Origin: an uncultured delta proteobacterium
Lineage (GTDB): Bacteria > Myxococcota_A > Polyangia > Polyangiales > Polyangiaceae
Length of the DNA: 64,000 nucleotides
Assembly (NCBI GenBank): GCA_963841435.1
Contig: CAWJCS010000006.1
Span: forward strand, 1,600,001 to 1,664,000
Direction: 5' to 3'
The position numbers and the translations under genes were made by a program. The notes under the pieces were generated by a model. The model was not told the origin of the DNA and did not search any database. It saw only the letters and a list, made by a program, of their open reading frames with translations. This document shows positions 1-57,551 of this stretch, piece by piece. Every line of letters begins with the position of its first letter. The first letter of the stretch is position 1.

Positions 1-1595
1 CAGGGCACCACGGTGCGCTCGGGCATGCGCCCCGGCTCGACGGGCGCGACCATGGAGAGCGGCTCGGCCGAGAGCACGAAGCCACCCACGTGAATCGACA
101 GGTGCCGCGGGAAACCCTCGAGCTCCCGAGCGAGGGCGAGCACCTGCTTCAGGCGCTCGGCCCCGGGATCGAATCCCATCTGCTCGATCAGGTTCGCGCT
201 CGACTCGCTCGTTTCCCAATGGATGATGGTGCTGCTCAGCCTGTCGAGCTGCTCCGCAGCAAGCCCGAACGCCTTGCCCACCTCGCGCAGCGCGCTCTTG
301 CCGCGGTAGGAGATCACTTCGGACACCATGGCGGCGCGGTCGCGACCCCAGCGCTCGTAGAGCTCTTGAATCACCTCCTCGCGCCGCTCGTGCTCGAAGT
401 CGATGTCGATGTCGGGTGGCTCGCGACGCTCTGCGCTCAAAAAGCGTTCGAAGAGCAAGCTCGAGCGCGCGGGATCGACCGCGGTGATGCCGAGGGCGTA
501 GCAAACCGCGCTGTTCGCCGCGCTACCCCTGCCCTGGCACAGGATGCGACGGCGCCGAGCTATTTCGACCACTTCGAGCGTCGAGAGAAAATACGACGCC
601 ACATCGATCTCGGCGATGAGCGCGAGCTCCTTTTCGACCTGCTCGGCGACGCCCGGCGGCGTGCCCCCGGGGTAGCGTCGCGAGAGCCCTTCGAGCGTCA
701 GGCGGCGCAGTCTTTCGTCGGCGCTCTCTCCCGGCTCGAGCGTACACGGGAAGCGATAGCGAAGCTCGGAGAGCGAGAAACTCAAAAGGCCCCCCAGCTC
801 CCCGGCGTGATCGACCCAGGCGGGCCGATCGGCGAAGACACGCCGCATTTCGAGCTCGGAGCGCAAAAAGGCCTCCGCGTTACCGTCGAGCGCGGTGCCG
901 GCGCGATCGAGCGTCGTGCCCGTGCGAATGCAGTGGAGCACGTCGGCGAGCGGCTTGCGCTCCGGCACGTGGTAAAGCGGGCGGGCGCTCGCGACGATCC
1001 CGAGGCCGTAACGATGAGCGGCGGAGCGCGCCGCCATCGTGCGCTCTCGATCGAACGCATCGAGGTGCCGATGCACGGCGATCGCCCCGCGCTCCCCGAA
1101 AACTTCCTTGATCGTCCCGAGAAGCTCCGGCGTCGGGGTGCTCGGATCGCCCGGTCGTCGCGGCGACGGAACGATCGCCACGAGACCTGCTGCGTGGTCA
1201 GCGAGCCAACGTGGATCGAGCGCGCTCTCGCCCTTCGGTAGATCCGCGTGCGCGCGCGTGAGCAGGTGGCAGAGGTTCTGGTAGCCCACGAGATTTTCGA
1301 CCAACAACGTCACCACGGGCAGCTCCGGCGCTGCCCTGCGCGTCGCGCTCGTCCGCCAGGAACCCTCGCGCTGCACGCTCGCGTCCACCCCGAGCTCCGC
1401 GCCCACGATCACGCGCGCACCAAGCTCCTTCGCGGCCACGTGAGCGCGCGCCGAGCCATAGAGCCCGTCCCGATCACAGAGCGCGAGTGCTTCGAGCTCG
1501 AGCTCCTTCGCGCGCGTCACCATTTCCTCCGGGCGAGAGGCACCCCGGAGGAAAGAGAAGGCAGAGCGGCCGAGGAGCTCGACGAAAGCCGGCAC
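1..1595 (-). CDS. dnaE2: Error-prone DNA polymerase III alpha subunit DnaE2 (5' part; runs off the window edge)
   Basis: Manual minus-strand translation from GTG at 1595 gives VPAFVELLGRSAFSFLRGASRPEEMV...LCDRDGLYG (PHP domain) and, near base 1, GFPRHLSIHVGGFVLS...EPGRMPERTVVP. Absent from the ORF track because its stop lies outside the window. Confidence 0.95.
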   Translation of the reverse strand, partial: MPAFVELLGRSAFSFLRGASRPEEMVTRAKELELEALALCDRDGLYGSARAHVAAKELGARVIVGAELGVDASVQREGSWRTSATRRAAPELPVVTLLVENLVGYQNLCHLLTRAHADLPKGESALDPRWLADHAAGLVAIVPSPRRPGDPSTPTPELLGTIKEVFGERGAIAVHRHLDAFDRERTMAARSAAHRYGLGIVASARPLYHVPERKPLADVLHCIRTGTTLDRAGTALDGNAEAFLRSELEMRRVFADRPAWVDHAGELGGLLSFSLSELRYRFPCTLEPGESADERLRRLTLEGLSRRYPGGTPPGVAEQVEKELALIAEIDVASYFLSTLEVVEIARRRRILCQGRGSAANSAVCYALGITAVDPARSSLLFERFLSAERREPPDIDIDFEHERREEVIQELYERWGRDRAAMVSEVISYRGKSALREVGKAFGLAAEQLDRLSSTIIHWETSESSANLIEQMGFDPGAERLKQVLALARELEGFPRHLSIHVGGFVLSAEPLSMVAPVEPGRMPERTVVP

Positions 1596-1598
1596 GGA

Positions 1599-1614
1599 CT
1601 GAACAGATGAGCAG
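1599..1614 (-). promoter_or_regulatory. LexA (SOS) box upstream of dnaE2
   Basis: Minus strand CTGCTCATCTGTTCAG matches 15/16 of the Myxococcus LexA consensus core CTRHAMRYBYGTTCAG, 3 nt before the GTG start. A TTGACC -35-like hexamer lies at 1627-1632. Confidence 0.85.
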
Positions 1615-1958
1615 TTACTGGGGTGGGGTCAAGTCAGAGGAAATATCTCAAACATTACTTGTGATTATGCCCTGATCAGCGGGAGCTCATCGGGGGCACC
1701 GGTGCCGGCCAGCCGTCTGGGCCGCGCCCGTGCACGTGACACGAGTCGTCGCCCGCGATCCGTCACCTGGACGACACGGTTCTCGACGCAACGCCCGACG
1801 CCCGAGCGATGATCGCCACAGTTGGACGCGTGATCCACGAGTCTCACCCACAGGTTCCCCCGAGTCTGTGGAATACCTCGCTGCCGCGGAGCGCGATGAG
1901 GCATTCGAATGGCAGCTCGGTTCCGATCGCGTGTTCGCACGTCGAACGCGCCGAGCGC

Positions 1959-3353
1959 TCAGCGGAGGCCGTAACGCGTCAGCCGATCACGCATGGTGGT
2001 TCGCGGCAATCCGAGCTGACGCGCCGCCGCACTCAGGTTCTTGCCGGACGCTTCCCACGCTTCCTCGATGAGCTGCCGCTCGAGCTCGCGAAGCGGGCGT
2101 GCCTTCGCCGGAGGGACGGCGCTGGTCGCGGAGCCGTTCTCGACCGATGGACTCGAATCCGCGAAGGCATTGTGGTCGTTCAGTACGGCGGAGACCTCGG
2201 CGACACCCACGAGCGGGCCGCCCGTGAGCGCGGCCGCTTCCTCGACGAGCCCCTTGAGCTCGCGGACGTTGCCGGGGAAGTGATAGGCGCGAAGCGCCTC
2301 GAGCGCTCGCGGCGAAAACGAGCGCGGGGGCCCGGCATACGTTGCGGACGAGGCGTTCAAGAATTGCGTCGCCAGCAACTCGATGTCGGCCGTCCGATCA
2401 CGCAGCCGTGGCATCAGGATCGTAAAACCCGAGAGGTGATAGTAGAGGTCCGACTGGAGCACCGCGTCGCGACCGGAGACGTTGGGGTTGGTGGCGCTGA
2501 TCACGCGGGCGCGAAATGGAATGTCGTAGTGGCCGCCAACGCGACGGAACGCACGCGTCTCGAGCGCCCTGAAAAGCTTCGGTGCGAGGGAGGTCGGCAG
2601 TTCGCGGAGCTCGTCGAGGAAGATCGAGCCGGACCCTGCGAGCTCCAAAAGACCCGCGCGCGTGCCCCACGAATCGGTGTTCGAGCCGGCGTCCTGGCCG
2701 AAGAGCTCGCTCTCGAAGAGCGTCTCGGGAATGGCCCCGCAGTCGAGGGGAAGGAACGGACCGTCGGTGCCACTCTGCGCGTGAATCGCCTTGGCCACGA
2801 GCTCCTTGCCCGTTCCTGGCTCACCGACGAGCAAGACGGACAGGTCGCGGTACGGGGCGACGGTGCGGATCTGCTCGTGCACGGCTCGCATGGCGGGGGT
2901 CTCGCCGAGGATCGACCCCGACTTTGGCGGTTGGCTCGGCCGCGGCCCTACCCGTGCCGAGCGACTCGACGCCGCGGCGCGCAAAAGGAGGTCGACTTCT
3001 ACCGCCGAGACCGGTTTCTGAATCACCTCGAAGGCGCCCGCCCGCATCGCGCGCACCGTGGACGGAACGTCAACGTGCCCCGAGAGTACGATACTCGCGA
3101 TGGGTGATTCGGATTGATCCTGCAGGCGCTCGATGAGCGTCACACCATCGCCATCCGGGAGCTGAAAGTCCACCAGCACGGCGTCGAAGCTCCGCTGGCC
3201 AGCCGCGGAGAGCGCGTCGGTCGCGTTCTTCACCGGCGTGACCTGCCACCCGAGGCGCGTGAACGCTCGCTCTGCAGAGCGCAGGAAATGCAAATCGTCA
3301 TCCACGATTAGCAACGAGCTACTAGCCGTCACTGCCATCACGTGTGTTTCCAC
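1959..3353 (-). CDS. NtrC-family response regulator (receiver-AAA+-Fis HTH) with degenerate sigma54-activation motifs
   Basis: Receiver LLIVDDD...LVDFQLPDGDG, Walker A GEPGTGKE, ESELFG, Walker B IFLDEL, FPGNVREL, C-terminal NLSAAARQLG HTH. Confidence 0.93.
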   Translation of the reverse strand: METHVMAVTASSSLLIVDDDLHFLRSAERAFTRLGWQVTPVKNATDALSAAGQRSFDAVLVDFQLPDGDGVTLIERLQDQSESPIASIVLSGHVDVPSTVRAMRAGAFEVIQKPVSAVEVDLLLRAAASSRSARVGPRPSQPPKSGSILGETPAMRAVHEQIRTVAPYRDLSVLLVGEPGTGKELVAKAIHAQSGTDGPFLPLDCGAIPETLFESELFGQDAGSNTDSWGTRAGLLELAGSGSIFLDELRELPTSLAPKLFRALETRAFRRVGGHYDIPFRARVISATNPNVSGRDAVLQSDLYYHLSGFTILMPRLRDRTADIELLATQFLNASSATYAGPPRSFSPRALEALRAYHFPGNVRELKGLVEEAAALTGGPLVGVAEVSAVLNDHNAFADSSPSVENGSATSAVPPAKARPLRELERQLIEEAWEASGKNLSAAARQLGLPRTTMRDRLTRYGLR

Positions 3354-4005
3354 TCCTCGAACTGATCACTAAAGGTCGCAGCCAATTTGGGCGGCGTCAA
3401 GCGTTCGAGGCTACCTTCGGGGCGAGGTTCCATCCGAGCGAGCGCGCGGGGACGCCACTCAACGCCGCCCGTCGGCGCAGCGCTCTCGTGCGCTCCGCCG
3501 GTCTCGTCGTGGTCGTCTTGGTTGTCGTCGTCGCGCAAGTTGCGCGAAAGCTCTTGGTGTCGGAAGCGATGAATCCGAGGGGGGAGATTGGTTGTGCGAG
3601 CAACGAATGGCGTCCAGGCCTGTGAAGCTAGACAACTTTGTCGGGTGGCTTCGCCGTGGCACTCGTTGGGCCCGCGACCGGAAGGCGGCCAGGCTGCCGT
3701 CCGCGCCGAGGCGCGGGAACGCCGACGAATTCGACCAAGACGGCCCACTCCTGCGCTCGTCAACGTATTCTGAACGGCCGTCTCGCTGTCAGTCATCGTC
3801 GGATTCCCTCTGCGCTCGCCGCCGACGGGTCGCCTTGTCTCGGGAGATATCGATTCTCGCCGGCAGGACGAATGGCACCAATGTAGGTCTCGCGGGCGAC
3901 CTTCGCCCGTCGCTGGTGCTCTGCCGAGCTCGGCACGGAGGTGCGCGGTCTCGCTCGACGCCGGACGCGAGCGCAGGCTCTACCCGCGCACCGCGCAAGG
4001 TTTCG

Positions 4006-4734
4006 TCAGTCGTTCACTTCGCGGAAATCCACCTCGTTGTGACCGAGGATGGCCGCGTAGCGGTCGGCCCAGGCGAGCGCCTCGGCCCGCGACGGCAAGC
4101 CGAGTAGCGAGAAGCCGGCGATGAGCTCCTTCGATTCGGCGAAGGGGCCGTCGACCCAGCCCCGCTTCCCCTGCGACGGCGCCCCGAGGCGAGCTCCGCG
4201 CGCGCTCGGCCCGAGGCTCTCGGCTGCCAGCACGACACCGTCGTCACCCAGCGACGCACCGAGAGTCTCTGCCGCACGGCGATGCTCTTTGCCGGCGCGC
4301 TCCCCGCGTTCGTCCGCGGCCGTCAACTTGCAGAGGAGCAGGAACTGTTCCGGCACCTTCCCCGAAGGACGCTCCATCAAACCGATGTCCCACGGCTCGA
4401 CGATCGGCCCGACCTCGACCTCGATCCCCCCGAGCAAGCTCGAAAGACGCTCGGCGTGCGCCACGGCCCCGTCCATCGACCGCGCACGCAGCATCACGAG
4501 CGATGCTACGAGCTCGTTGCGGCCTTCGTACGGTCCGCGCTCGACGCTGGGAGCACCACCGCCCGTCTTCACGCGAGCACGACGGGCGCTTCGGTGGAGC
4601 CCGGCGCCGTTCAGGAAGATGCCTTTCGCGAGGCTCTCCCGGACCAGCGTGCCCATGCCCTCGACGATGGCCTGGTTCGGCGGAGCACCGGCTTCCATCG
4701 CGGCATCGACCTTGTGCATGACCAGATAGCGCAT
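4006..4734 (-). CDS. YciI/DGPF-domain protein (two tandem YciI-like halves)
   Basis: MRYLVMHK start; ERGPYEGRNELVAS and VDGPFAESKELIAGF motifs. Confidence 0.88.
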   Translation of the reverse strand: MRYLVMHKVDAAMEAGAPPNQAIVEGMGTLVRESLAKGIFLNGAGLHRSARRARVKTGGGAPSVERGPYEGRNELVASLVMLRARSMDGAVAHAERLSSLLGGIEVEVGPIVEPWDIGLMERPSGKVPEQFLLLCKLTAADERGERAGKEHRRAAETLGASLGDDGVVLAAESLGPSARGARLGAPSQGKRGWVDGPFAESKELIAGFSLLGLPSRAEALAWADRYAAILGHNEVDFREVND

Positions 4735-4742
4735 GGGCCCTC

Positions 4743-5426
4743 CTAGCCGAGCAGCACGGACAGCGCGCCGGGCGACGCCAGCGAATCGAAGGCATGCGTC
4801 GCGCCGCAACCGAGGAGCGCGTCTCTGGTGTAGCGGCCGGTTCCGACGCCAATCGATTCGGCGCCGATACCCTGGGCGGCCGCGACGTCCTTCGGTGTGT
4901 CGCCGATGACGACGACGCGACAGCTCGCGAGCCCGACACCCAGATGCTCGGCGCCGCGCTCCGCCCCGCGGCGGATCAGCACCACCCGCTCCTCGGCGTC
5001 GGAGCCGAAGCCGCCGAAGGCGAACTCTTCGAACACCCCGAGCCCTCCGAGCTTGATGCGCGCCCCCTCGACGACGTTGCCGGTTCCGAGCCCGACACCG
5101 TGACCGCGTGCTTTGGCGGCGCGGATGGCTTCGGCCATGCCGTCGTGAAGGCGGTAGCTCGCGCGATCGACGAGCGAAAGCTCTTCTTCGAGCAGGCGAA
5201 GATAGAGCGTGATGACGGCGTCAATGGCGGCCTCACTGACGGCTTCGCCGATGGCTTCGAGCCCGCGCCGGGCGATCTGCCGGTCGGTGAGGCCGTCGAA
5301 GGGGAAGCGACAGGCGTCATCGCGCGAGAAACGTTCGCTGAAGGCGCGATCGATGGCACGGTGGCCGGCGCCGCCGGTCGTGATCAGGGTGCCGTCGATG
5401 TCGAAGAGCAGGATGGTAGGGGGCAT
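4743..5426 (-). CDS. HAD-superfamily hydrolase
   Basis: LLFDIDGTL motif I, GTGN motif II, VIGDTPKD motif IV. Confidence 0.92.
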   Translation of the reverse strand: MPPTILLFDIDGTLITTGGAGHRAIDRAFSERFSRDDACRFPFDGLTDRQIARRGLEAIGEAVSEAAIDAVITLYLRLLEEELSLVDRASYRLHDGMAEAIRAAKARGHGVGLGTGNVVEGARIKLGGLGVFEEFAFGGFGSDAEERVVLIRRGAERGAEHLGVGLASCRVVVIGDTPKDVAAAQGIGAESIGVGTGRYTRDALLGCGATHAFDSLASPGALSVLLG

Positions 5427-5549
5427 GGTGAAGACGAGAGGGCGCCGGCGCGCGCGTGTGAGGCGCGCAGCATAGTACGCGACGGCTGGCCCTGCGACCT
5501 GCGCTCGACCGAGTGAAGCGCCGCTGGAACCGTGCCGAAGGCCTTCTTG

Positions 5550-7229
5550 CTAGTCGGCGATGGCTTGGAGGTAGCGTTTACCGGTCCTGCGATCGACGTA
5601 GGCGAGCGCTTCGACGACGCCTTCCGTCCCCCGGAGTAGGAGCCGAACGTAGTCGCGCGCGATGGGAGCGCGGGTCCACCACTCGACGAGAGAAAGACGC
5701 TGCTCGAAGGACAAGGCGTCGACGCTGTACAGACGGCGCTCGATGGCCAGGGTGGCACCCCGTGCGAGCGCCCCGTCGAGCTCCACCGGCACGGGCAAGA
5801 GCCGCGTGAGGGGGGTACGCGCGGAGCCGGGGCTCCCTTCCCTGCCCTCGACGACGGCGAGCGGCGCACCCGCGACGTGCATGGCGATGGGCGTCGCGGC
5901 GCGCGGCCTCTTCGGCCTACGCCGCCGCGGCGTAGCCTGCGTGGAAATCAGCGCTGGACCGAGCGTGCTGCGCGCCTCGAGCCGATGGGCATCGAGCGTA
6001 GTGAGCACGCCGACGCGTTCCTCACCTATGTCGGCGAATAGCTCGGCGAGCACGAGCGGCAGCTCCCTGTCCACGTCGGTACCACCGGAGAGCACCTCAC
6101 CGAGCTCGAGCTGACGCGCGGCCGCCGGAGCGACGACGGGCGCCTCCAGACGCAGCCCCACCGAAGGCGCCGGAAGGCGCGCGCGCTCGAGCCGGGAGCT
6201 GACCACCCGGCGGATTTCCTCTTCGCGGGTGAGCGGCGTGGACAGAGCGAAGCGGAGACTCGTTTTTTCGGGCGCGCCGCGCAGGCGAGCTATCGAACGA
6301 TCGTGCTCGATGTGGAGCACGAGCGACTCGGCCGCGAGCCCGCGCCCGCCGAGCCGCCCGGCCAGCCGCGCCGAAAGCCCCCGCAGTGCGAACTGCAGGG
6401 GCTCGCTCCCCTCGACACCGTGCTCGAAGCTCACCCCCTCCGCGACGCGCGGCGGGAGCTGGTACGGCACGAGCGGCTGCGGATCGTGCCCGGCGGCAAG
6501 CTCGAGCGCGCGGCCCGCCTCCCCTTCGAGGCGGCTACCGAGCGCCGCGCGCGGCAACAGCGCGAGATCTCCCAGTGTGAGCACGCCGAGGCGCACGAGA
6601 AAGCTCTGGCACTCCGCGCCGAGCGGCAGCGAAACGATGGGAAGCTCTCGAACGGCGCGCGGCAGCTCCTCGTTCGTGATCACGAAAAGATCCTTGCCGT
6701 CGTGAGCGGGCGGCGACCAGCGCGCGAACGCGCGTGAGAGCGTGGGGCCGTTCGCGATGGCGAGCCGCGCCACGTGGCCGAGAGAACGCACGCGACTCGA
6801 GAGCTCTTCGCCGAGCGCGGCTTCACCTCCGAACAGATGCGCAGAGCCGGTGACATCGAGCCACACGGTATCTGGAGGGCCGAGCGCTACCGTGGCGCCG
6901 AAGCCGAGCGCCACCTCCGCCAGGGTGGCAAGCGCGCTCCGCAGCACCTCCGGAGAAAGACGCCGCACCTCGAAACCCGCGAAGAGCGCGCCGGCCTCGG
7001 CAATCGTTTGACCGGCGCGCACGCCATAACGCCTTGCCCGGGCGCTCACCGCGTCGAGCAGCAACGTCGGCTTGAGTGGCTCGTCCGGATCGACCCGCTC
7101 GTCCACGAGCACCACGCCGAGCTCGGCGGGAGGGCGATCCGGCGCGCTTCGCGCGCAGACTTCCACCAAGAGCTCGGGCAGATAGAGCGCCGCGATGCGA
7201 CGCCCGGTTTCAGGCGAGCTTTCGCTCAT
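5550..7229 (-). CDS. imuB: ImuB, Y-family polymerase-like accessory protein
   Basis: RRIAALYLP, ARRYGVRAGQTIAEA, VWLDVTGSAHLFGGE, LGVLTLGDL, C-terminal EWW...RDY; overlaps the imuA stop. Confidence 0.9.
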   Translation of the reverse strand: MSESSPETGRRIAALYLPELLVEVCARSAPDRPPAELGVVLVDERVDPDEPLKPTLLLDAVSARARRYGVRAGQTIAEAGALFAGFEVRRLSPEVLRSALATLAEVALGFGATVALGPPDTVWLDVTGSAHLFGGEAALGEELSSRVRSLGHVARLAIANGPTLSRAFARWSPPAHDGKDLFVITNEELPRAVRELPIVSLPLGAECQSFLVRLGVLTLGDLALLPRAALGSRLEGEAGRALELAAGHDPQPLVPYQLPPRVAEGVSFEHGVEGSEPLQFALRGLSARLAGRLGGRGLAAESLVLHIEHDRSIARLRGAPEKTSLRFALSTPLTREEEIRRVVSSRLERARLPAPSVGLRLEAPVVAPAAARQLELGEVLSGGTDVDRELPLVLAELFADIGEERVGVLTTLDAHRLEARSTLGPALISTQATPRRRRPKRPRAATPIAMHVAGAPLAVVEGREGSPGSARTPLTRLLPVPVELDGALARGATLAIERRLYSVDALSFEQRLSLVEWWTRAPIARDYVRLLLRGTEGVVEALAYVDRRTGKRYLQAIAD

Positions 7230-7959
7230 CGGAGGCTCCGAGCATCGGGCTTTCACCGTGCTGAAGGAGCACGGAGCGTGACGGCGTGACGCGCCCCCGG
7301 CGGTCTTTCGCGACCCGCACGACGAGACGCTCTCGCGTGGGACGAGACAGCTCGATGCGCTGCGCTACCGGCAACGGCAACGAGCGGGGCTGTGACGTCG
7401 AAGTGAGGAGCAGCACGTTGCTCTTGGTACCGTTGACGGCCATCGACAGACGCCGAACGACGCGCGAAAAGCTCTTCAACGAAAGATCGACCGTGCTGCC
7501 GAGCGTACCCGACGTGTCCACCACGACGAGGTCGAACACGCCCGACTCCACGAGCTTGATGGCCACTCGCCCGATCGCTTCCGCTTTCGGACGCACGACG
7601 AGCAAACGTTCGATCTTTACGCCGAGCGCTTCCACCCCGGGGGCATAAAGGCTCATGGACGGGTCGACGAAGGCGCACCACGGCACCCGGGCGGAGACGC
7701 TGGCCGCACCCGCACGCTGCGCGGAGCGCACGGCGCTCAGCGACAGCGTGGTGGCGAGCGCGCTCGACCCGGCGACCGAAAGCTCCACCACCCCACCGCG
7801 AAGCAGCCCGCCGTCCGGCAGGGCTCGATCGAGCTCGGCGATGCCGAAGGGCAGACCCTCTTCCTCCCGCCCGAAAGCGGTGCCGAGCTGGACCCCTGCC
7901 TTAACTAATGCGGGGGAAATACTGGCGAGAGCCGCGGGAAGCGCCACGACACTGAACAT
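7210..7959 (-). CDS. imuA: ImuA, RecA-like translesion synthesis accessory protein (start may be GTG 7947)
   Basis: LPFGIAELDRALPDGGLLRGGVVEL, WCAFVDPSMSLYAPG, LLVVRP, FDLVVVD, VAKDRRG; directly upstream of imuB. Confidence 0.88.
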   Translation of the reverse strand: MFSVVALPAALASISPALVKAGVQLGTAFGREEEGLPFGIAELDRALPDGGLLRGGVVELSVAGSSALATTLSLSAVRSAQRAGAASVSARVPWCAFVDPSMSLYAPGVEALGVKIERLLVVRPKAEAIGRVAIKLVESGVFDLVVVDTSGTLGSTVDLSLKSFSRVVRRLSMAVNGTKSNVLLLTSTSQPRSLPLPVAQRIELSRPTRERLVVRVAKDRRGRVTPSRSVLLQHGESPMLGASDERKLA

Positions 7960-7967
7960 AGTATCAG
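7952..7967 (-). promoter_or_regulatory. LexA (SOS) box upstream of imuA-imuB
   Basis: Minus strand CTGATACTATGTTCAG (CTGA-N8-TCAG, 13/16 to consensus) in an AT-rich patch; contains an extended -10-like TGATACTAT; TTGTCA at 7977-7982. Confidence 0.8.
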
Positions 7968-8047
7968 ATAACAAAATGACAAGCGCCGGCCCGCTGGCCC
8001 GGCCAAACAATGTCCTCCCAATGCCGCGCCTCGACCCTGTGCGCGCT

Positions 8048-8794
8048 TTAGCGCCCACCGCTCACGTCGAGCAGCGCGCCGGTGACGTACGACGCTTCTT
8101 CGCCGAGCAGCCACACGATGGCACGCGCCACCTCCTCAGGGTCACCGCCGCGCTTCATCGGCAGCGTCGTGCCCAATCGATCGACGCGCCCGGGGTCGCC
8201 GTAGGTCGCGTGGATCTCGGTGTGGATGAGACCGGGCCGCACGGCGTTCACCCGGACGCCCTCGGCGGCCACTTCCTTCGCGAGCCCGAGCGTCATCGTG
8301 TCGATGGCACCCTTCGATGCGGCGTAATCCACGTACTCGCCGGGCGATCCCAGGCGCGACGCTGCCGACGACACGTTGACGATCGCGCCCCCCGGACCAC
8401 CGTGCACCGTGGACATGCGCCGCAGGGCTTCGCGCGCGCACAAAAACGCACCGGTGACGTTGGTGGCAAAAAGGCGCGTCAGCCGCTCCGCATCCATCGC
8501 GTCAACGCGTGCCATCGGCGCGACGATGCCGGCATTGTTGACGAGCGCCGTCACCCGCCCAAGCTCGCGATCCACGCTCTCGAAGAGCCGCACCACCTGG
8601 GACTCGTCGGCCACGTCGCCCCGGACGGCGAGGGCGCGCCCGCCCTCTCGCTCGATGGCGGCGACGACCTCACGCGCGGCGGCCTCGTCGGAGCGAAAAT
8701 TGACGCACACGGCGAAGCCCCGCCCTGCCGCGAGCTTGCTGGTGGCGGCCCCGATGCCGCGACTACCCCCGGTGACGACGAGCACGGGCTGCAT
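8048..8794 (-). CDS. Short-chain dehydrogenase/reductase
   Basis: TGGSRGIG, NNAG, YAASKGA, VNAVRPG. Confidence 0.93.
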   Translation of the reverse strand: MQPVLVVTGGSRGIGAATSKLAAGRGFAVCVNFRSDEAAAREVVAAIEREGGRALAVRGDVADESQVVRLFESVDRELGRVTALVNNAGIVAPMARVDAMDAERLTRLFATNVTGAFLCAREALRRMSTVHGGPGGAIVNVSSAASRLGSPGEYVDYAASKGAIDTMTLGLAKEVAAEGVRVNAVRPGLIHTEIHATYGDPGRVDRLGTTLPMKRGGDPEEVARAIVWLLGEEASYVTGALLDVSGGR

Positions 8795-40205: not shown

Positions 40206-40282
40206 CGGGGTGTACCTCAACCTGGTAGAGGGCCGGCTTTGGGTGCCGGCTGTTGCAGGTTCAAATCCTGCCACCCCGACCA
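40206..40282 (+). tRNA. tRNA-Pro (anticodon TGG)
   Basis: Acceptor CGGGGTG/CACCCCG + ACCA, D stem CCTC/GAGG, anticodon arm CCGGC-TTTGGGT-GCCGG, T arm GCAGG-TTCAAAT-CCTGC. Confidence 0.97.
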
Positions 40283-54511: not shown

Positions 54512-55054
54512 GTGGTGCGCTCCGCCTACTCGCCGCTCCTCGTGCTCGCTCTCGGGGCGAGCGGTTGCCTGAACTGGGGCAAAGTCGACGATGCGAAGGT
54601 CCCCGGTGACCTGCTCGGGACGTACGACGTGTCGGCCAAGCTCGAGCGCTCGACCTGCGGCGACGGCATACTCGGCGCGAGCGATGCGTGGCGCTTCCAG
54701 GTCAAGCTCTCGCGCTTCGAGAACGACCTTTATTGGTTGAACGGGCGCGAGGCCATCGTCGGCAGCATCGAGCGTGACGGTCGATCCTTCAGCTTCGAGA
54801 GCGGCGTCCAGGTCCCCATTCCGCCCGAGGCGGGTGGCGACCCCGACTGCACCGTGCGCCGCGACGACCATGCGAGCGGCAAGCTCTCCAACGAAGGCGT
54901 CAACGTCGAAAGCTTCGAGGGCTCGCTCACGTTTTCCTATCGTGCGCTCGACGCCGCGAGCTGCGAAAGCTGGCTACTCACGCCCGATGCCCCTGCCCGA
55001 CTGCCCTGCGACATCGAGTACCAGATGAGCGCAGAACGAAGCTCGAGCGAATAA
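54512..55054 (+). CDS. Hypothetical lipoprotein
   Basis: Lipobox ASGC; beta-rich sequence with paired Cys; normal codon bias. Confidence 0.8.
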   Translation: MVRSAYSPLLVLALGASGCLNWGKVDDAKVPGDLLGTYDVSAKLERSTCGDGILGASDAWRFQVKLSRFENDLYWLNGREAIVGSIERDGRSFSFESGVQVPIPPEAGGDPDCTVRRDDHASGKLSNEGVNVESFEGSLTFSYRALDAASCESWLLTPDAPARLPCDIEYQMSAERSSSE

Positions 55055-55231
55055 CAGAGCGCGCCACGCGGGCGGCACGTGGCGAGAGCAGAGCGCGGGG
55101 ACCGGTCGAGGGAGCCGCCCGGGTGGGCCGAGCGGCCGAATCGGGCGCGGAGAAAAGCGGCCAACACGCGGTGGAATGGGACGGCGCGCTCGTGGGTTTT
55201 GCTGTGCGACCACGCGGTTTGCGTGCTATGT

Positions 55232-55247
55232 CTGAACCAACGTGCAG
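55232..55247. promoter_or_regulatory. LexA (SOS) box overlapping the predicted start of the structured RNA
   Basis: CTGAACCAACGTGCAG; reverse complement CTGCACGTTGGTTCAG is 15/16 to CTRHAMRYBYGTTCAG; abuts extended -10-like TGCTATGTC (55224-55232). Confidence 0.75.
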
Positions 55248-55645
55248 CATGGAACCTTGGTTCCCGGGCCGGTCCGTCGGGGGGTTACCCTCGAGTGGTG
55301 CATCAGGGATGAAGCCGCGACTCCGCGGCTTCCTTTCGGAAGCGCCCCCATCGAGAACGGTGGCGATGGAGCGCTCGGAAATCGGTTTGGGCGTCTCTCG
55401 CTCTGCCGTTGCTCCGGGGCGTCCGGCCAAGGCCGGAGGAGGTCAGTGCACAATGCATAGATGTTGTACCCCTTGCCCGGAGGTAACCCTCTAGCCTCGG
55501 ACCCCGCGCCTACGGCGCGAGCCTGAGGTATCGGCTGCTGACGCTCTGCACACGGCAAAGCTCGTAGCCGGCCCCCACCCTCCGGGTGTGTCGGGGCTAC
55601 ACCGCGAGCCGGGCGGCCAGGTTGCCGCCCGGCTCGTCTTACTTT
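55240..55645 (+). ncRNA. Putative large structured non-coding RNA of unrecognised class (~400 nt)
   Basis: More than 12 mutually compatible nested helices with many G-U pairs, a possible loop-loop interaction, an upstream promoter-like element and a downstream terminator, in a 700-bp gap with no credible ORF. Confidence 0.65.
55604..55645 (+). terminator. Intrinsic terminator
   Basis: GCGAGCCGGGCGGC-CAGGTT-GCCGCCCGGCTCGT then CTTACTTT. Confidence 0.85.
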
Positions 55646-55763
55646 GTGACGCGGGTGCCCAAAGTGCGGGCGTCGCCTGTTGGGACTGGACATTCGGGCC
55701 AATCTGCTGGAAAAACCTCCGTCGCGTGGGGCGACGGCCCACCTCGCCTGAGGAATCAGCCTG

Positions 55764-57551
55764 ATGATCGAGCACTTGATGGCGCTTGCCGCCGCGCACC
55801 TGCACTCGCTGGGGCTCGGCTCCGATTTTTTCCTTTACGAGCGCTGGGAGGGTCCCTGGTTCGAGAAGGACAACTGGGAACGGGCCATGAAGGGCCTGCG
55901 CATCTTCCTGACGATGTCGGGGGCGCTGTTCCTCATCTACGAGATCCGCGCCCGCCGGCTACGCGAGAAGCTCAGCCTGCGCTTCCGCCGCCGCATCGCG
56001 TACGTGATGACGGCGCTCGCGTTCCTCGTCTACTTCGACTTTTTCAATCCGAACGTCCGCTACGACCAGTACTACCACCGGCACGAGTTTTATCATTACT
56101 ACCTAGGCTCGAAGTTCTCGAAGGAGCTCGGCTATCTCCGGCTCTACGAGTGCACGATGATCGCCGAGATCGAGCTTGGCCGCGGCGCGAGCGTCCGCAA
56201 GCGCGAGGTCAGAGACCTCCGCGTCAACCTCATCAAGCCGGTCGAGGCGACGTACATCGTCAGCGACCCCGATCAGTGCAAGCGCCACTTCACCCCCGCA
56301 CGCTGGGAGGCGTTCAAGAAGGACGTCGACTGGTTCTACCACTCAGCCGCCGGCAGCTATTGGGAGGGCATGCAGAAGGACCACGGGTACAACCCGCCGC
56401 CAGTCTGGACGATGACCGGCAAGTTCTTCGGCAGCTTCGGTCCAGCGGGCGACGGGTATTTCAAGGCCCTCGCCTTCATCGACATCTTCTTCCACCTCGG
56501 CTGCGTGCTGATGTTCGGCTGGGCGTTCGGCTGGAGGGCGATGGCGGTCGCCACGGTGTTCTGGGGCTGTAATGCGCCCGCAAACTTCTACTGGACCGGA
56601 GGAGCGTTCCTCAGACAGGACTGGATCTTCCTTCTGGTCGCGTCTCTCTGTCTGCTCCGGAAGCGAAAGTTCTTCATGGCGGGGTTCGCGCTCACCTGGT
56701 CGGCGTTGCTCCGCATCTTCCCGGGTCTCTTCATTTTCGGCGTCGCGATCATCGTGGGCTTTCACCTGATCGAGAAGATCCGGCAGGCCCGCGCCGGCAA
56801 CCCACCGAAGACGCTGCTCGACTACCTCCACGTCGATCACCGGCGCTTCATCGGCGGGTGCGTCGTGTGCCTGGCGACGCTCGTCCCAGCGAGCATCGTC
56901 GTCACGGGCGGGACGGAAGCCTACAAGGACTTCTACGAGCACACGCTGAAGACCCACCAGCGGACCCCACTGACCAACACCATGGGTCTCGAGACCATGG
57001 TCGAGCACAACTGGGCGGGTCGCATGCGCTTCACGCGCGACGACAACCTCGACGATCCGTTCGAGGGCTGGAAGCAAGGGCGCCTCGACCGCTTCCAGCA
57101 GATGAAGCCCGTATTCTTCGGCATCATCGCAATCATTGCCGCATGGACGGCGTGGGCGCTGCGCCGGACCAAGCTCCTTTGGGTCGGTCTCGCGCTCAGC
57201 GCGCCGATGGTGGTCTGCCTCACGAACGTCACTTGCTACTACTATTCGTTCTGGATGGTGGTCGGAGCGCTCGTGATCGCGCGCCGGCAGATCGGCCCAC
57301 CGCTTTTGGTCGCGAGCGGCGTGAGCCAGATCCTGCTCTACGCGCCGAACGGCTACTATTGGGTCAACGACCGGTACAACGCGCAGTCGTACCTGTTCTT
57401 CGCGCTGTCGCTCGTCGTGCTCTTCGTCTACTCGCGGCCGTTCAGCATCCAGCGTCTGAAGGCGTGGTGGGACCACAAGCCTGAGCCCAAGGGCAAGCTA
57501 AAGCTCCTGGTCTCGTCGGGGCCGCCACCTGCCCCCACGCCGGGCGAATAG
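55764..57551 (+). CDS. Polytopic membrane protein, GT-C/GT87 glycosyltransferase-like
   Basis: HEFYHYYLGSKF, DHGYNPPPVW, WTGGAFLRQDW, LLRIFP, CYYY; over 10 TM segments; GAGG RBS. Confidence 0.7.
   Translation: MIEHLMALAAAHLHSLGLGSDFFLYERWEGPWFEKDNWERAMKGLRIFLTMSGALFLIYEIRARRLREKLSLRFRRRIAYVMTALAFLVYFDFFNPNVRYDQYYHRHEFYHYYLGSKFSKELGYLRLYECTMIAEIELGRGASVRKREVRDLRVNLIKPVEATYIVSDPDQCKRHFTPARWEAFKKDVDWFYHSAAGSYWEGMQKDHGYNPPPVWTMTGKFFGSFGPAGDGYFKALAFIDIFFHLGCVLMFGWAFGWRAMAVATVFWGCNAPANFYWTGGAFLRQDWIFLLVASLCLLRKRKFFMAGFALTWSALLRIFPGLFIFGVAIIVGFHLIEKIRQARAGNPPKTLLDYLHVDHRRFIGGCVVCLATLVPASIVVTGGTEAYKDFYEHTLKTHQRTPLTNTMGLETMVEHNWAGRMRFTRDDNLDDPFEGWKQGRLDRFQQMKPVFFGIIAIIAAWTAWALRRTKLLWVGLALSAPMVVCLTNVTCYYYSFWMVVGALVIARRQIGPPLLVASGVSQILLYAPNGYYWVNDRYNAQSYLFFALSLVVLFVYSRPFSIQRLKAWWDHKPEPKGKLKLLVSSGPPPAPTPGE

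Follow-up and report, generated by a model that had tools for sequence, protein, structure and literature searches.

The question raised by this locus is whether the space between two + strand genes holds a gene of its own and, if so, of what kind. It lies in a 64,000-nt stretch of Polyangiaceae DNA, called hereafter the window. A preliminary description had put the gap at about 700 bp (it measures 709 nt, between 54512-55054 and 55764-57551), and had proposed that it encodes a large structured RNA under SOS control; its observations are partly confirmed, and its interpretation partly supported, by the analysis reported below. The flanking genes are the following.

54512..55054, + strand: upstream neighbour; its 180-aa product begins like a lipoprotein (lipobox read by eye from the translation)
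55764..57551, + strand: downstream neighbour, a 595-aa polytopic membrane protein

Neither protein matched a Pfam or NCBIfam family, and these collections together with the protein Atlas gave no function beyond a weak lead to GT87-type glycosyltransferases for the 595-aa protein (13% of the members of one protein Atlas cluster).

Extent of the RNA gene

Comparison of the gap with its homologues delimited the following elements.

55224..55232, + strand: extended -10 promoter element (TG, one base, TATGTC), at the sharp 5' edge of conservation
55232..55247, + strand: LexA-type box CTGAAC-N4-GTGCAG, covering the final base of the -10 element as well as the predicted start
55240..55647, + strand: inferred transcript of about 408 nt, predicted from the promoter and terminator positions
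55604..55647, + strand: intrinsic terminator with a 14-bp stem, a 6-nt loop and a T-rich tail

The transcript start was set about 7 nt 3' of the -10 element and its end at the T-tail of the terminator. Elements of the TGnTAnnnT type are present in nearly all aligned homologues and, in other genera, a TTGGC-like -35 element is found 17-18 nt upstream of the -10. A generic sigma-70 scan detected no promoter in the window, so that the -10 element of the window, which ends in C, is recognised by its conservation. The 14-bp terminator reported earlier was found again (stem at 55604-55637, followed by the T-tail); a terminator was seen by eye in all 30 loci inspected, and located by an automated finder in 61 of 68 distinct loci. 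Between terminator and downstream gene, a conserved TAGCCT-like -10 element was noticed by eye in several genera.

Conservation is sharply bounded at the promoter and at the terminator, the family transcription unit measures about 400-510 nt and is single copy by sequence comparison, and blastn found one copy in the window's own genome. The gap also folds strongly, as had been noted: the + strand fold has an energy of -221.2 kcal/mol (z = -4.46), and none of 100 shuffled sequences folded as well. The z value was -3.33 for the - strand. Judged from sequence comparison, 55240-55647 (+) holds an RNA gene that is present once, is complete in itself and has a promoter and a terminator of its own, and the earlier idea of a stand-alone structured + strand RNA of about 400 nt is supported.

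Conserved fold of the 5' part

The nested architecture closed by four long-range helices, which had been drawn by eye, was not conserved. Two of these helices (55279-89/55482-92 and 55297-302/55465-70) could be tested in a 30-sequence alignment, where 73.8% of the cells were paired; three of their pairs had changed on both sides, versus 3.6 expected, and 447 of 500 shuffles reached three. The other two reach into 55530-55551, which is conserved only in the closest relatives. Local alternatives fitted far better, with 94.8% of cells paired, 10 covarying pairs and none of 500 shuffles as good (alignment A2). Of the hairpins proposed earlier, two show both conservation and covariation, namely 55251-64, with its CUUG loop, and 55311-32. 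The elements of the local fold are listed here.

55242..55303, + strand: 5' four-way junction, in which P1 (55242-48/55297-303) encloses P2, P3 and P4
55251-55/55260-64, + strand: P2 hairpin, inside the junction
55265-68/55273-76, + strand: P3 hairpin, inside the junction
55277-83/55288-94, + strand: P4 hairpin, inside the junction
55311..55332, + strand: P5 hairpin of variable length, GAAGCCGCG/CGCGGCUUC
55333..55342, + strand: conserved joining segment YUNCGGAAG, GGAA being invariant within the genus (invariant columns)
55343..55421, + strand: P6 helix (55343-48/55416-21), closing a long irregular arm of variable sequence
55422..55437, + strand: P7 hairpin UCCGGC-CAAG-GCCGGA, whose 3' strand runs into a Shine-Dalgarno (SD) sequence

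In A2, pairing dropped from 94.8% to 47-52% once the partners were slid against each other. A multi-genus alignment (A3) gave 93.9% of cells paired, with 28 of 30 pairs changed on both sides and none of 500 shuffles as good; these pair counts are inflated, because A3 was fitted to the model. For P5, both-side changes affect 5 of 8 pairs within the genus and 7 of 7 across genera. Although its sequence turns over, the P6 arm adopts the same fold in each of the 30 sequences from the genus, P6 itself having compensatory variants within the genus and, by eye, between genera, and in P7 a CG pair is replaced by GC in three sequences and by AU in two. Indels in the 5' part are mostly not multiples of three (195 of 222 pairwise indels), and in the window the consensus fold lies only 4.5 kcal/mol above the minimum free energy (MFE). 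From the 5' end onwards, the conserved fold consists of the four-way junction (P1-P4), P5, the variable arm closed by P6, the small P7 hairpin and, lastly, the helix that closes the 3' domain, which is described below with the mini-ORF.

Distribution and relation to known RNA families

Homologues had been expected in Myxococcota, and were found in Polyangiaceae. Within the genus, blastn detected the RNA in 32 of 36 genomes. A covariance model (R1) detected one copy in 45 of 151 genomes of Polyangiaceae, belonging to 28 of the 89 sampled genera. With a second model (R2), a draw from the order gave 12 of 23 family genomes versus 0 of 127 genomes of other families, and a draw from the phylum 5 of 11 versus 0 of 139. 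When the collection was scanned for the P7-SD-ATG pattern, at least 120 stretches matched, and R1 confirmed 30 of the 80 loci examined. The other 50 came from Streptomyces, Acidobacteria, Sorangium and further groups; the ones that were inspected proved to be coding DNA or the starts of ordinary genes, and were rejected as homologues.

The RNA had been described as belonging to no recognised class, and none of the 4227 models of Rfam 15 matched it at gathering score, the only Rfam match in the whole window being a tRNA at 40206-40279. With E values up to 10, only chance-level matches, on the terminator hairpin, were obtained for 55000-55800, the best sub-threshold one being PtaRNA1 (24.3 bits, for a cut-off of 47). 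The statement that signatures of RNase P RNA, tmRNA and 6S RNA are lacking also held at the locus with RF00010, RF00013 and ARAGORN, the latter detecting no tmRNA or tRNA-like structure in 55100-55800. The bona fide RNase P RNA of the genome lies elsewhere (C4:576007-576390, 286 bits), as does the best 6S-like match (39.5 bits, below cut-off). Full-text literature searches on non-coding RNA, LexA and structured RNA in myxobacteria, Polyangiaceae and Myxococcota returned no description of the RNA. By sequence, the homologues form a family of stand-alone RNA genes, not described before, in myxobacteria of the Polyangiaceae type.

A LexA-type box over the predicted start

The 16-nt LexA box that had been placed over the predicted 5' end is present at 55232-55247. 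Starting on the final base of the -10 element, it runs to about +8; in the RNA, its right half becomes the 5' strand of P1. An M. xanthus LexA-box consensus has no exact match in the genome, and the genome's own palindrome, CTGAAC-N4-GTTCAG, was used in its place for scoring. The box matches this palindrome at 11 of 12 positions. Only eight sites of this quality or better exist in the 7.78 Mb genome, including those at uvrA, dinB and dnaG, and the two perfect ones are at uvrA and dinB. Boxes matching at 10 of 12 positions are found in the recA1, lexA, imuA and dnaE2 promoters of the same genome, and an exact GTTCAG lies about 31 nt upstream of lexA in 27 of 30 lexA genes of the family. The organism's own operator motif lies over the predicted promoter and start of the RNA gene, as it would for a member of the LexA regulon.

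Among distinct homologous loci, a box of at least 10/12 was present in 49 of 87, versus 0 of 84 control segments. A good box is missing from the other 38, so that SOS control is not family-wide. Since the right half-site doubles as P1, part of its conservation is explained by P1 alone. The LexA-box reading of 55232-55247 is well supported by this comparative evidence, and the RNA gene appears to be inducible by DNA damage. A related arrangement comes from LexA ChIP-seq in M. tuberculosis, where the abstract of the study places a LexA site at a non-coding RNA gene (PMC3381160); the phylum is different, and the M. tuberculosis RNAs are much smaller, with no structural class reported there. Passages of two papers on myxobacteria describe the DNA-damage response as only partly LexA-dependent, and contain no LexA-box consensus (PMC9705874, PMC12288472).

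A mini-ORF and the predicted closing helix of the 3' domain

The gap had been described as lacking any ORF with normal codon bias and the RNA as purely non-coding. The gap does contain a conserved frame, and a purely non-coding RNA is not supported: a conserved SD, ATG and stop define a mini-ORF at 55453-55494, within the following arrangement.

55435..55442, + strand: SD-like GGAGGAGG, found in 93 of 93 loci evaluated
55453..55494, + strand: mini-ORF of 13 codons and TAG
55465..55483, + strand: predicted 5' strand of P8, inside ORF codons 5-11 (UGUACCCC, 2-nt gap, GCCCGGAGG)
55495..55577, + strand: variable inner 3' hairpins, including a GCGCG-type hairpin at 55495-55529
55579..55601, + strand: predicted 3' strand of P8 (CCUCCGGG, spacer, GGGGCUACA)

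GGAGGAGG is invariant and precedes an invariant ATG by 6-11 nt. An ORF of 12-21 codons was open in the mini-ORF frame in all 67 complete distinct homologues (L015, which runs into a contig end, was left out of this census), and its stop is always in frame though ORF length varies. In the other two frames, the first stop fell within 12-21 codons in only 4 of 66 and 4 of 65 cases.

The mini-ORF is predicted to form one strand of P8, a helix that would close the 3' domain just before the terminator. P8 was derived from duplex prediction and from folding of the 3' half. The inner 3' domain differs in length between homologues, being about 45 nt at its shortest and about 300 nt at its longest, and P8 was the closing helix of the 3'-half MFE structure in 7 of 8 properly delimited cases, the boundaries being set by hand coordinates for the window; the 3' halves of L062 and L072 folded otherwise. 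An exact 8-nt complement in the window type is replaced by a different 8-nt pair in L057/L058, three compensatory changes separating the two types. The cognate duplex was stronger than that with a shuffled ORF in 52 of 61 cases, whereas cognate and non-cognate duplex energies were not discriminated (32 of 61), so that covariation of P8 rests on few lineages. Alternatively, the 3' strand is predicted to form a local hairpin with CCUCCGGG in its loop. This C-rich segment is complementary to SD-like GGAGG sequences.

Proposed mechanism

The reading that we favour, with a probability of about one half, is that of a new SOS-inducible, mRNA-like RNA that regulates as a dual-function RNA and in which translation gates the fold. 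At this locus, and at roughly half of the homologous ones, LexA would bind the box over the start and keep the gene off until DNA is damaged. Once the RNA is made, ribosomes would load on the mini-ORF and unzip P8 during translation; opening of P8 would free the C-rich CCUCCGGG and remodel the 3' domain. By this release, the RNA would act as a translation-gated regulatory RNA during the SOS response.

Known dual-function regulatory RNAs with an embedded small ORF are S. aureus RNAIII/hld, SgrS/SgrT and B. subtilis SR1. Like them, the RNA is long and multi-hairpin, it has in its sequence the promoter and terminator of an independent transcription unit, and it carries a short SD-led ORF in its middle and a C-rich, SD-complementary element that could pair with mRNAs. 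Unlike them, it has an ORF of only 12-21 codons, whose peptide is not conserved and which would be a strand of a conserved long-range helix, and it is putatively under LexA-type control. No Rfam match, and hence no homology in sequence or structure, connects it to them. More speculatively, and in our opinion rather improbably, the family could be a new class of DNA-damage-induced, ribosome-gated riboregulator, in which the 5' junction would be a sensor or protein platform, and translation of the mini-ORF would work as a mechanical switch, unlocking the helix at the base of the 3' domain and releasing an anti-SD-like loop. This loop would then reprogramme translation or recruit a partner in the SOS response of Polyangiaceae.

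Alternative readings

One alternative, which we hold to be unlikely yet worth serious attention, is a pure non-coding RNA (scaffold, sponge or ribozyme), in which GGAGGAGG, the AUG and the in-frame stop are structural or protein-binding and the ORF is never translated. The 190 nt at the 5' end are richly structured and covarying, conservation of the peptide is poor, and P8 pairing accounts for the ORF nucleotides (AGU AGU UGU ACC CC, CCGGAGG). With these nucleotides constrained by P8, the SD and ATG could have a structural role, or ribosomes could bind there and yet make no product. Chance alone, besides, is expected to give an open frame of 12 codons at 69% G+C, as estimated from base composition. 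Against this stand the SD, invariant in every locus evaluated, with its ATG 6-11 nt downstream, and the predicted folds, which leave both SD and AUG unpaired or put them in loops. Frame 0 is also the sole open frame in all 67 distinct regions. Its stop is kept at 12-21 codons despite variation in length and, in some lineages, insertions that are not multiples of three, which makes a purely structural element unlikely.

The large structured bacterial RNAs of unknown function OLE, GOLLD, ROOL, HEARO and raiA, all in Rfam, share with the present one a size of 400-500 nt, a multi-junction covarying structure, a narrow taxonomic range and a single copy. None of their Rfam models matches here, and the translation-initiation region with its mini-ORF and the recognisable stress-regulator box set the present RNA apart from them.

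A second alternative would make the RNA a cis-acting leader-peptide attenuator, translation of the mini-ORF deciding on read-through of the terminator (55604-55647) and placing the 595-aa gene under SOS control. The layout fits, with a promoter, an SD and ORF pairing with a distal segment, an intrinsic terminator and a same-strand gene. A homologue of the membrane-protein gene lies 3' of the RNA in 33 of 39 loci of relatives, in several genera, and this tight synteny leaves room for a role in cis. The upstream-gene homologue, however, is found 5' of the RNA equally often (33 of 39), so that gene order may simply be inherited. Linkage to the downstream gene is not obligatory, since each occurs without the other: the RNA is found without the membrane-protein gene in L055-L058, its full architecture being kept beside convergent genes (tRNA-Gly in L055, an ORF in L056), and in G116 the membrane-protein gene is present with no RNA upstream. 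The TAGCCT-like -10 element between terminator and gene also argues against an attenuator.

The leader-peptide transcription attenuators trpL, pheL and mgtL offer a comparison. They share with the present RNA an SD with an ORF of 12-21 codons, which on being translated would open a helix in the RNA, and an intrinsic terminator followed, usually, by a same-strand gene. The differences are that inspection of the sequences revealed no antiterminator pairing of the P8 3' strand with the terminator arm, that 45-300 nt lie between ORF and terminator, that the mini-ORFs of the homologues have no regulatory codon runs, that the RNA is retained where a convergent gene follows, and that it has a large conserved 5' domain. 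We regard an attenuator as improbable.

As a third alternative, the RNA could be the mRNA of a functional SOS micro-peptide of 12-21 aa, for instance a division or repair modulator, its structure serving only to tune stability and translation. SOS regulons elsewhere do contain small proteins, such as TisB, DinQ and SidA. The SD, ATG and stop are conserved, and a loose consensus, M-x-S-S-C-x-P-x-P-E-V/G, recurs in many genera. This motif is nevertheless missing from several genera, where variants resemble MKTQRTLTLEV, MHKRSGSHLGG or MQRSNNPFYLE, and in the L050 lineage the frame and the CCGGAGG element are out of register. Those residues that are conserved fall on nucleotides of P8, and 190 nt of conserved 5' structure would be left unexplained. 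To our knowledge, the peptide is also shorter than any known SOS effector.

The SOS-induced type I toxin mRNAs of E. coli, tisB/istR-1 and dinQ/agrB, resemble this gene in that their promoters bear a LexA box and that a short ORF sits in a highly structured RNA, where long-range pairing, here predicted, governs ribosome access. A type I toxin should be a membrane peptide, hydrophobic and at least about 25 aa long, whereas the present peptides (12-21 aa) are hydrophilic and half the size; they are therefore not membrane toxins. No antisense partner was seen here, and the 190-nt junction domain that precedes the ORF is a further difference. The peptide itself is probably unimportant, and the chances of a micro-peptide mRNA appear slimmer still than those of an attenuator.

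Finally, that there is no functional RNA at all, only a protein-coding region or a chance fold, is very improbable: long overlapping ORFs (123 aa on the + strand, 158 aa on the - strand) do exist and G+C-rich DNA folds well regardless, but neither ORF matches a Pfam family, the z value of -4.46 and the sharp bounds at promoter and terminator speak for an RNA, and the compensatory covariation and the indel pattern already contradict this reading.

Implications

Large, strongly covarying bacterial RNAs outside known families are rare, and have repeatedly led to new biology. For this one, the regulatory handle is unusually clear, the LexA box being common to uvrA, dinB, recA and imuA-imuB-dnaE2, and a mechanistic hypothesis is built in, the mini-ORF being in the model one strand of a conserved long-range helix. 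With these two features, function is directly testable in any cultured member of the Polyangiaceae. The gene would add a structured RNA to the myxobacterial SOS regulon, and it is a reminder that labels such as "intergenic, no ORF" overlook frames of 12-20 codons. In three soil-metagenome contig sets, only short contigs of the organism or its relatives span parts of 54900-55900.

An RNA gene outside the known families

Two + strand ORFs (54512–55054 and 55764–57551) bound a 709-nt gap that houses the RNA element. Folding of the + strand gave -221.2 kcal/mol, much below shuffled controls (z = -4.46), and the - strand of the same gap gave z = -3.33 versus shuffles. The preliminary description had proposed an RNA of unrecognised class, distinct from RNase P and 6S RNA, and the searches agree with it. 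Apart from a tRNA at 40206, no Rfam 15 family reached the gathering score in the whole window; a permissive Rfam scan of 55000–55800 returned chance-level matches only, all on the terminator hairpin, and ARAGORN found no match at the element. The RNase P RNA of this genome and its best 6S-like match are both located elsewhere. Full-text literature searches found no description of the RNA. It most resembles dual-function RNAs (RNAIII, for example), SOS type I toxin mRNAs, leader-peptide attenuators and the large orphan Rfam RNAs, each of which has single features only in common with it.

The RNase P RNA gene proper lies at C4:576007, C4, C5 and C6 being contigs of this genome. Sub-threshold matches to RNase P RNA were also seen at C6:177059-177252 (80.5 bits), C4:550300-550417 and C5:897710-897827 (57.7 bits each); the identical scores of the last two suggest a repeated element.

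A single copy of the element is present in its own genome. Conservation begins sharply at GTGCTAT (55223) and dwindles past ~55500 except among the nearest relatives. The terminator described earlier at the end of the RNA is present:

55604–55637, +, terminator stem, followed by a T-rich tail

Homologues carry an equivalent, a strong intrinsic terminator 130–260 nt 3' of the invariant CCGGAGGT (30/30 loci by eye, 61/68 with an automated finder), which gives RNA lengths of ~390–510 nt. The 30 rows used include L030, a locus from a genome flagged unpublished (G033), and no statement depends on L030 alone. A generic sigma-70 scan of the window found no promoter; the promoter was called from a conserved TGnTAnnnT element, with a TTGGC motif 17–18 nt 5' of it in other genera.

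A conserved fold around a four-way junction

Comparison of homologues revealed the following helices:

55242–48/55297–303, +, P1, closing helix of a four-way junction with P2, P3 and P4
55251–64, +, P2, hairpin
55265–76, +, P3, junction hairpin
55277–94, +, P4, junction hairpin
55311–32, +, P5, hairpin, followed by a joiner with an invariant GGAA
55343–48/55416–21, +, P6, closing helix of a long arm
55422–37, +, P7, last helix before the Shine-Dalgarno-like element

In the genus alignment (30 sequences), the 31 pairs of P1–P5 were 94.8% paired, versus 47–52% with slid partners, and 10 pairs showed changes on both sides, a number equalled by none of 500 shuffles. In the multi-genus alignment 93.9% of cells were paired and 28/30 pairs had compensatory changes, counts that are flattered because this alignment is model-fitted. 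The P6 arm shows complete sequence turnover between clades and like folding in 30/30 sequences. At several conserved pairs G-U alternates with A-U or G-C, which fits the + strand only, the strand first proposed. Enforcing P1–P7 on the window RNA costs 4.5 kcal/mol above the MFE.

Two hairpins noted from the sequence alone, one with a CUUG loop and one at 55311–32, thus reappear as P2 and P5. The nested long-range architecture drawn around them gives way to the junction P1–P4, P5, the P6 arm and P7: its two testable long-range helices were 73.8% paired, with covariation not above shuffles, and reflect G-run/C-run complementarity peculiar to this genome.

A mini-ORF that is also one strand of a helix

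Directly 3' of P7 begins a short putative translation module, part of which is complementary to the 3' end of the RNA:

55435–42, +, Shine-Dalgarno-like GGAGGAGG
55453 (ATG) to 55492–94 (TAG), +, mini-ORF of 13 codons, its ATG ten nt past GGAGGAGG
55465–83, +, P8 5' strand, codons 5–11: UGUACCCC then GCCCGGAGG
55579–601, +, P8 3' strand, CCUCCGGG then GGGGCUACA, just 5' of the terminator

A Shine-Dalgarno-like element with an ATG 6–11 nt 3' was found at all 93 loci evaluated (of 94). These represent 68 distinct regions, 67 of them complete, and all 67 contain an ORF of 12–21 codons in the mini-ORF frame; for the two alternative frames, a first stop within 12–21 codons is seen in just 4/66 and 4/65 regions. 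Length varies by clade, and the stop is nonetheless in frame. The earlier view that the gap holds no ORF with normal codon bias thus needs correcting for this frame. The bulk of the RNA, by contrast, is non-coding: over the first 285 columns of the alignment, counted from the 5' end, 195/222 pairwise indels have lengths not divisible by three, and the overlapping long ORFs have no Pfam family.

In the MFE structure of the 3' half, P8 closes the entire variable 3' domain in the window. It is likewise the closing helix in six of seven other properly delimited homologues (L002, L009, L020, L026, L049, L051), a set outside which fall two further cases with overshot terminator ends; L062 and L072 fold differently. 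In the genus of L057/L058 three positions are changed both in the octamer of the ORF, whose offset is unchanged, and in the 3' segment that pairs with it; all three changes are compensatory, and another genus preserves P8 via a G-U pair. Cognate duplexes were stronger than shuffled-ORF duplexes in 52/61 cases. Comparison of cognate with non-cognate duplexes did not discriminate (32/61), so that P8 is supported less firmly than P1–P7. A local hairpin with CCUCCGGG in the loop is an alternative fold for the P8 3' strand. Shine-Dalgarno sequences of the GGAGG type, that of this RNA among them, are complementary to CCUCCGGG.

A LexA-type operator at the promoter

55232–47, +, LexA-type box CTGAAC-N4-GTGCAG, covering the final -10 base and the predicted start

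This box, already reported over the 5' end, matches the SOS operator of the genome: only 8 sites in 7.78 Mb agree with CTGAAC-N4-GTTCAG at 11/12 positions or better, and it is one of them. Of the two perfect palindromes, one is at uvrA, at its 5' end, and the other precedes a dinB-type polymerase gene by 20 nt. Boxes with 10/12 matches were seen in the recA1 promoter, between -35 and -10, within the promoter of lexA, and 5' of both imuA (window 7952) and dnaE2 (window 1599). Across the family, 27/30 lexA genes have an exact GTTCAG ~31 nt upstream. Boxes of at least 10/12 were found at the promoter in 49/87 distinct RNA loci versus 0/84 control segments, and loci without a good box keep the right half alone, which is part of P1. 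Therefore, as judged from these sites, SOS control of the RNA is probably widespread and old, though not universal.

Other SOS genes were also seen. Positions 1–8058 of the window hold a mutagenesis cassette on the - strand:

3–1595, -, dnaE2-like gene, PHP and DNA_pol3_alpha domains
5550–7256, -, imuB-like Y-family polymerase gene
7210–8058, -, imuA/RecA-like gene
1599–1614 and 7952–7967, LexA-type boxes of the cassette

The genome has two recA genes, C3:1236694-1237503 and C3:439225-440007 (C3, a further contig). The first carries a LexA-type box in its -35/-10 spacer, whereas none was found within 350 nt upstream of the second. An 11/12 box 72 nt upstream of dnaG (primase), at C6:550490 (2001–2016 of locus L045), makes this gene an unusual SOS-regulon candidate. 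A second, shorter protein with a LexA DNA-binding domain (C4:849934-850074, in a 143-aa open frame) has AT-rich palindromic DNA upstream.

A possible translation-gated regulator

At the level of sequence, the comparisons establish the gene boundaries, the conserved fold, the frame running from Shine-Dalgarno element through ATG to stop, its overlap with P8 and the operator match. We propose that LexA would repress the gene and that DNA damage would lead to synthesis of the RNA. Ribosomes initiating at 55453 would unzip P8 while translating the 13 codons, which would remodel the 3' domain and expose the CCUCCGGG element, so that the RNA would act as a translation-gated regulator.

The most serious alternative, a scaffold RNA that is never translated, would suit the conserved fold and the poor conservation of the peptide; set beside the invariable start module and in-frame stop, it is less likely than the translation-gated regulator. 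An attenuator acting on the downstream gene through a leader peptide appears improbable. The upstream neighbour is a lipoprotein-like 180-aa gene, the downstream neighbour a gene for a polytopic membrane protein of 595 aa; both lack a Pfam or NCBIfam family (a weak GT87 lead only), and each is represented by a homologue next to the RNA in 33/39 loci. However, the full RNA architecture also occurs beside a convergent tRNA-Gly (L055) and a convergent ORF (L056), and one genome (G116) has the membrane-protein gene without the RNA; on these arrangements we take the RNA to be a unit of its own, with a cis contribution to the downstream gene by read-through possible. Slightly less probable still is an mRNA for a functional micro-peptide: a loose pattern, M-x-S-S-C-x-P-x-P-E-V/G, recurs in many genera, but very different strings occur elsewhere and the peptide is poorly conserved.

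Between the RNA and the membrane-protein gene, just upstream of the latter, 55646–55763 contains an inverted repeat CCGTCGC/GCGACGG (55719–55737) and a conserved CGTCGCGTGGGGCGAC, both common to close relatives; this may be a site that regulates the membrane-protein gene itself.

Distribution

By blastn the element was found in 32/36 same-genus genomes and in 0/24 genomes from other genera of the order. A covariance model built on the 5' 103 positions of the genus alignment (R1) detected one copy in 10/23 genomes from further genera within its family, Polyangiaceae, and none in 127 genomes from 23 other families of the order. In a family-wide draw, 45/151 genomes were positive with R1, representing 28/89 genera. 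A model rebuilt on 50 multi-genus sequences (R2) gave 12/23 within and 0/127 outside the family for the order draw, and 5/11 versus 0/139 for a phylum draw. As both models were run under stricter Infernal filters and many genomes are incomplete, absences mean that these searches did not find the element in the genomes they covered.

A pattern scan of named public genomes yielded at least 30 loci confirmed by R1, whose titles, among the matches listed, were Polyangiaceae, Myxococcales, Myxococcota, 'delta proteobacterium' and other Proteobacteria-labelled MAGs. Fifty other fetched matches (Streptomyces, Acidobacteria, a Sorangium coding region and others) were, where inspected, unrelated gene starts or coding DNA. 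Among them, a conserved hairpin-GGAGGAGG-ATG module precedes one orthologous gene in Streptomyces (L083, L085, L088, L094, L102 and others), hemerythrin-like by its N-terminus in L094; having no R1 match, it was ruled out as a relative of the myxobacterial RNA.

In another genus of the family (genome G182, locus L206, ~640–1000), a shorter element lies between the same lipoprotein-like and membrane-protein genes. It scores only 11.4 bits with R2 and has no recognisable Shine-Dalgarno-ORF module; with its similar promoter, GUGCAGG start and own terminator, it may represent a relative that has diverged or been reduced.
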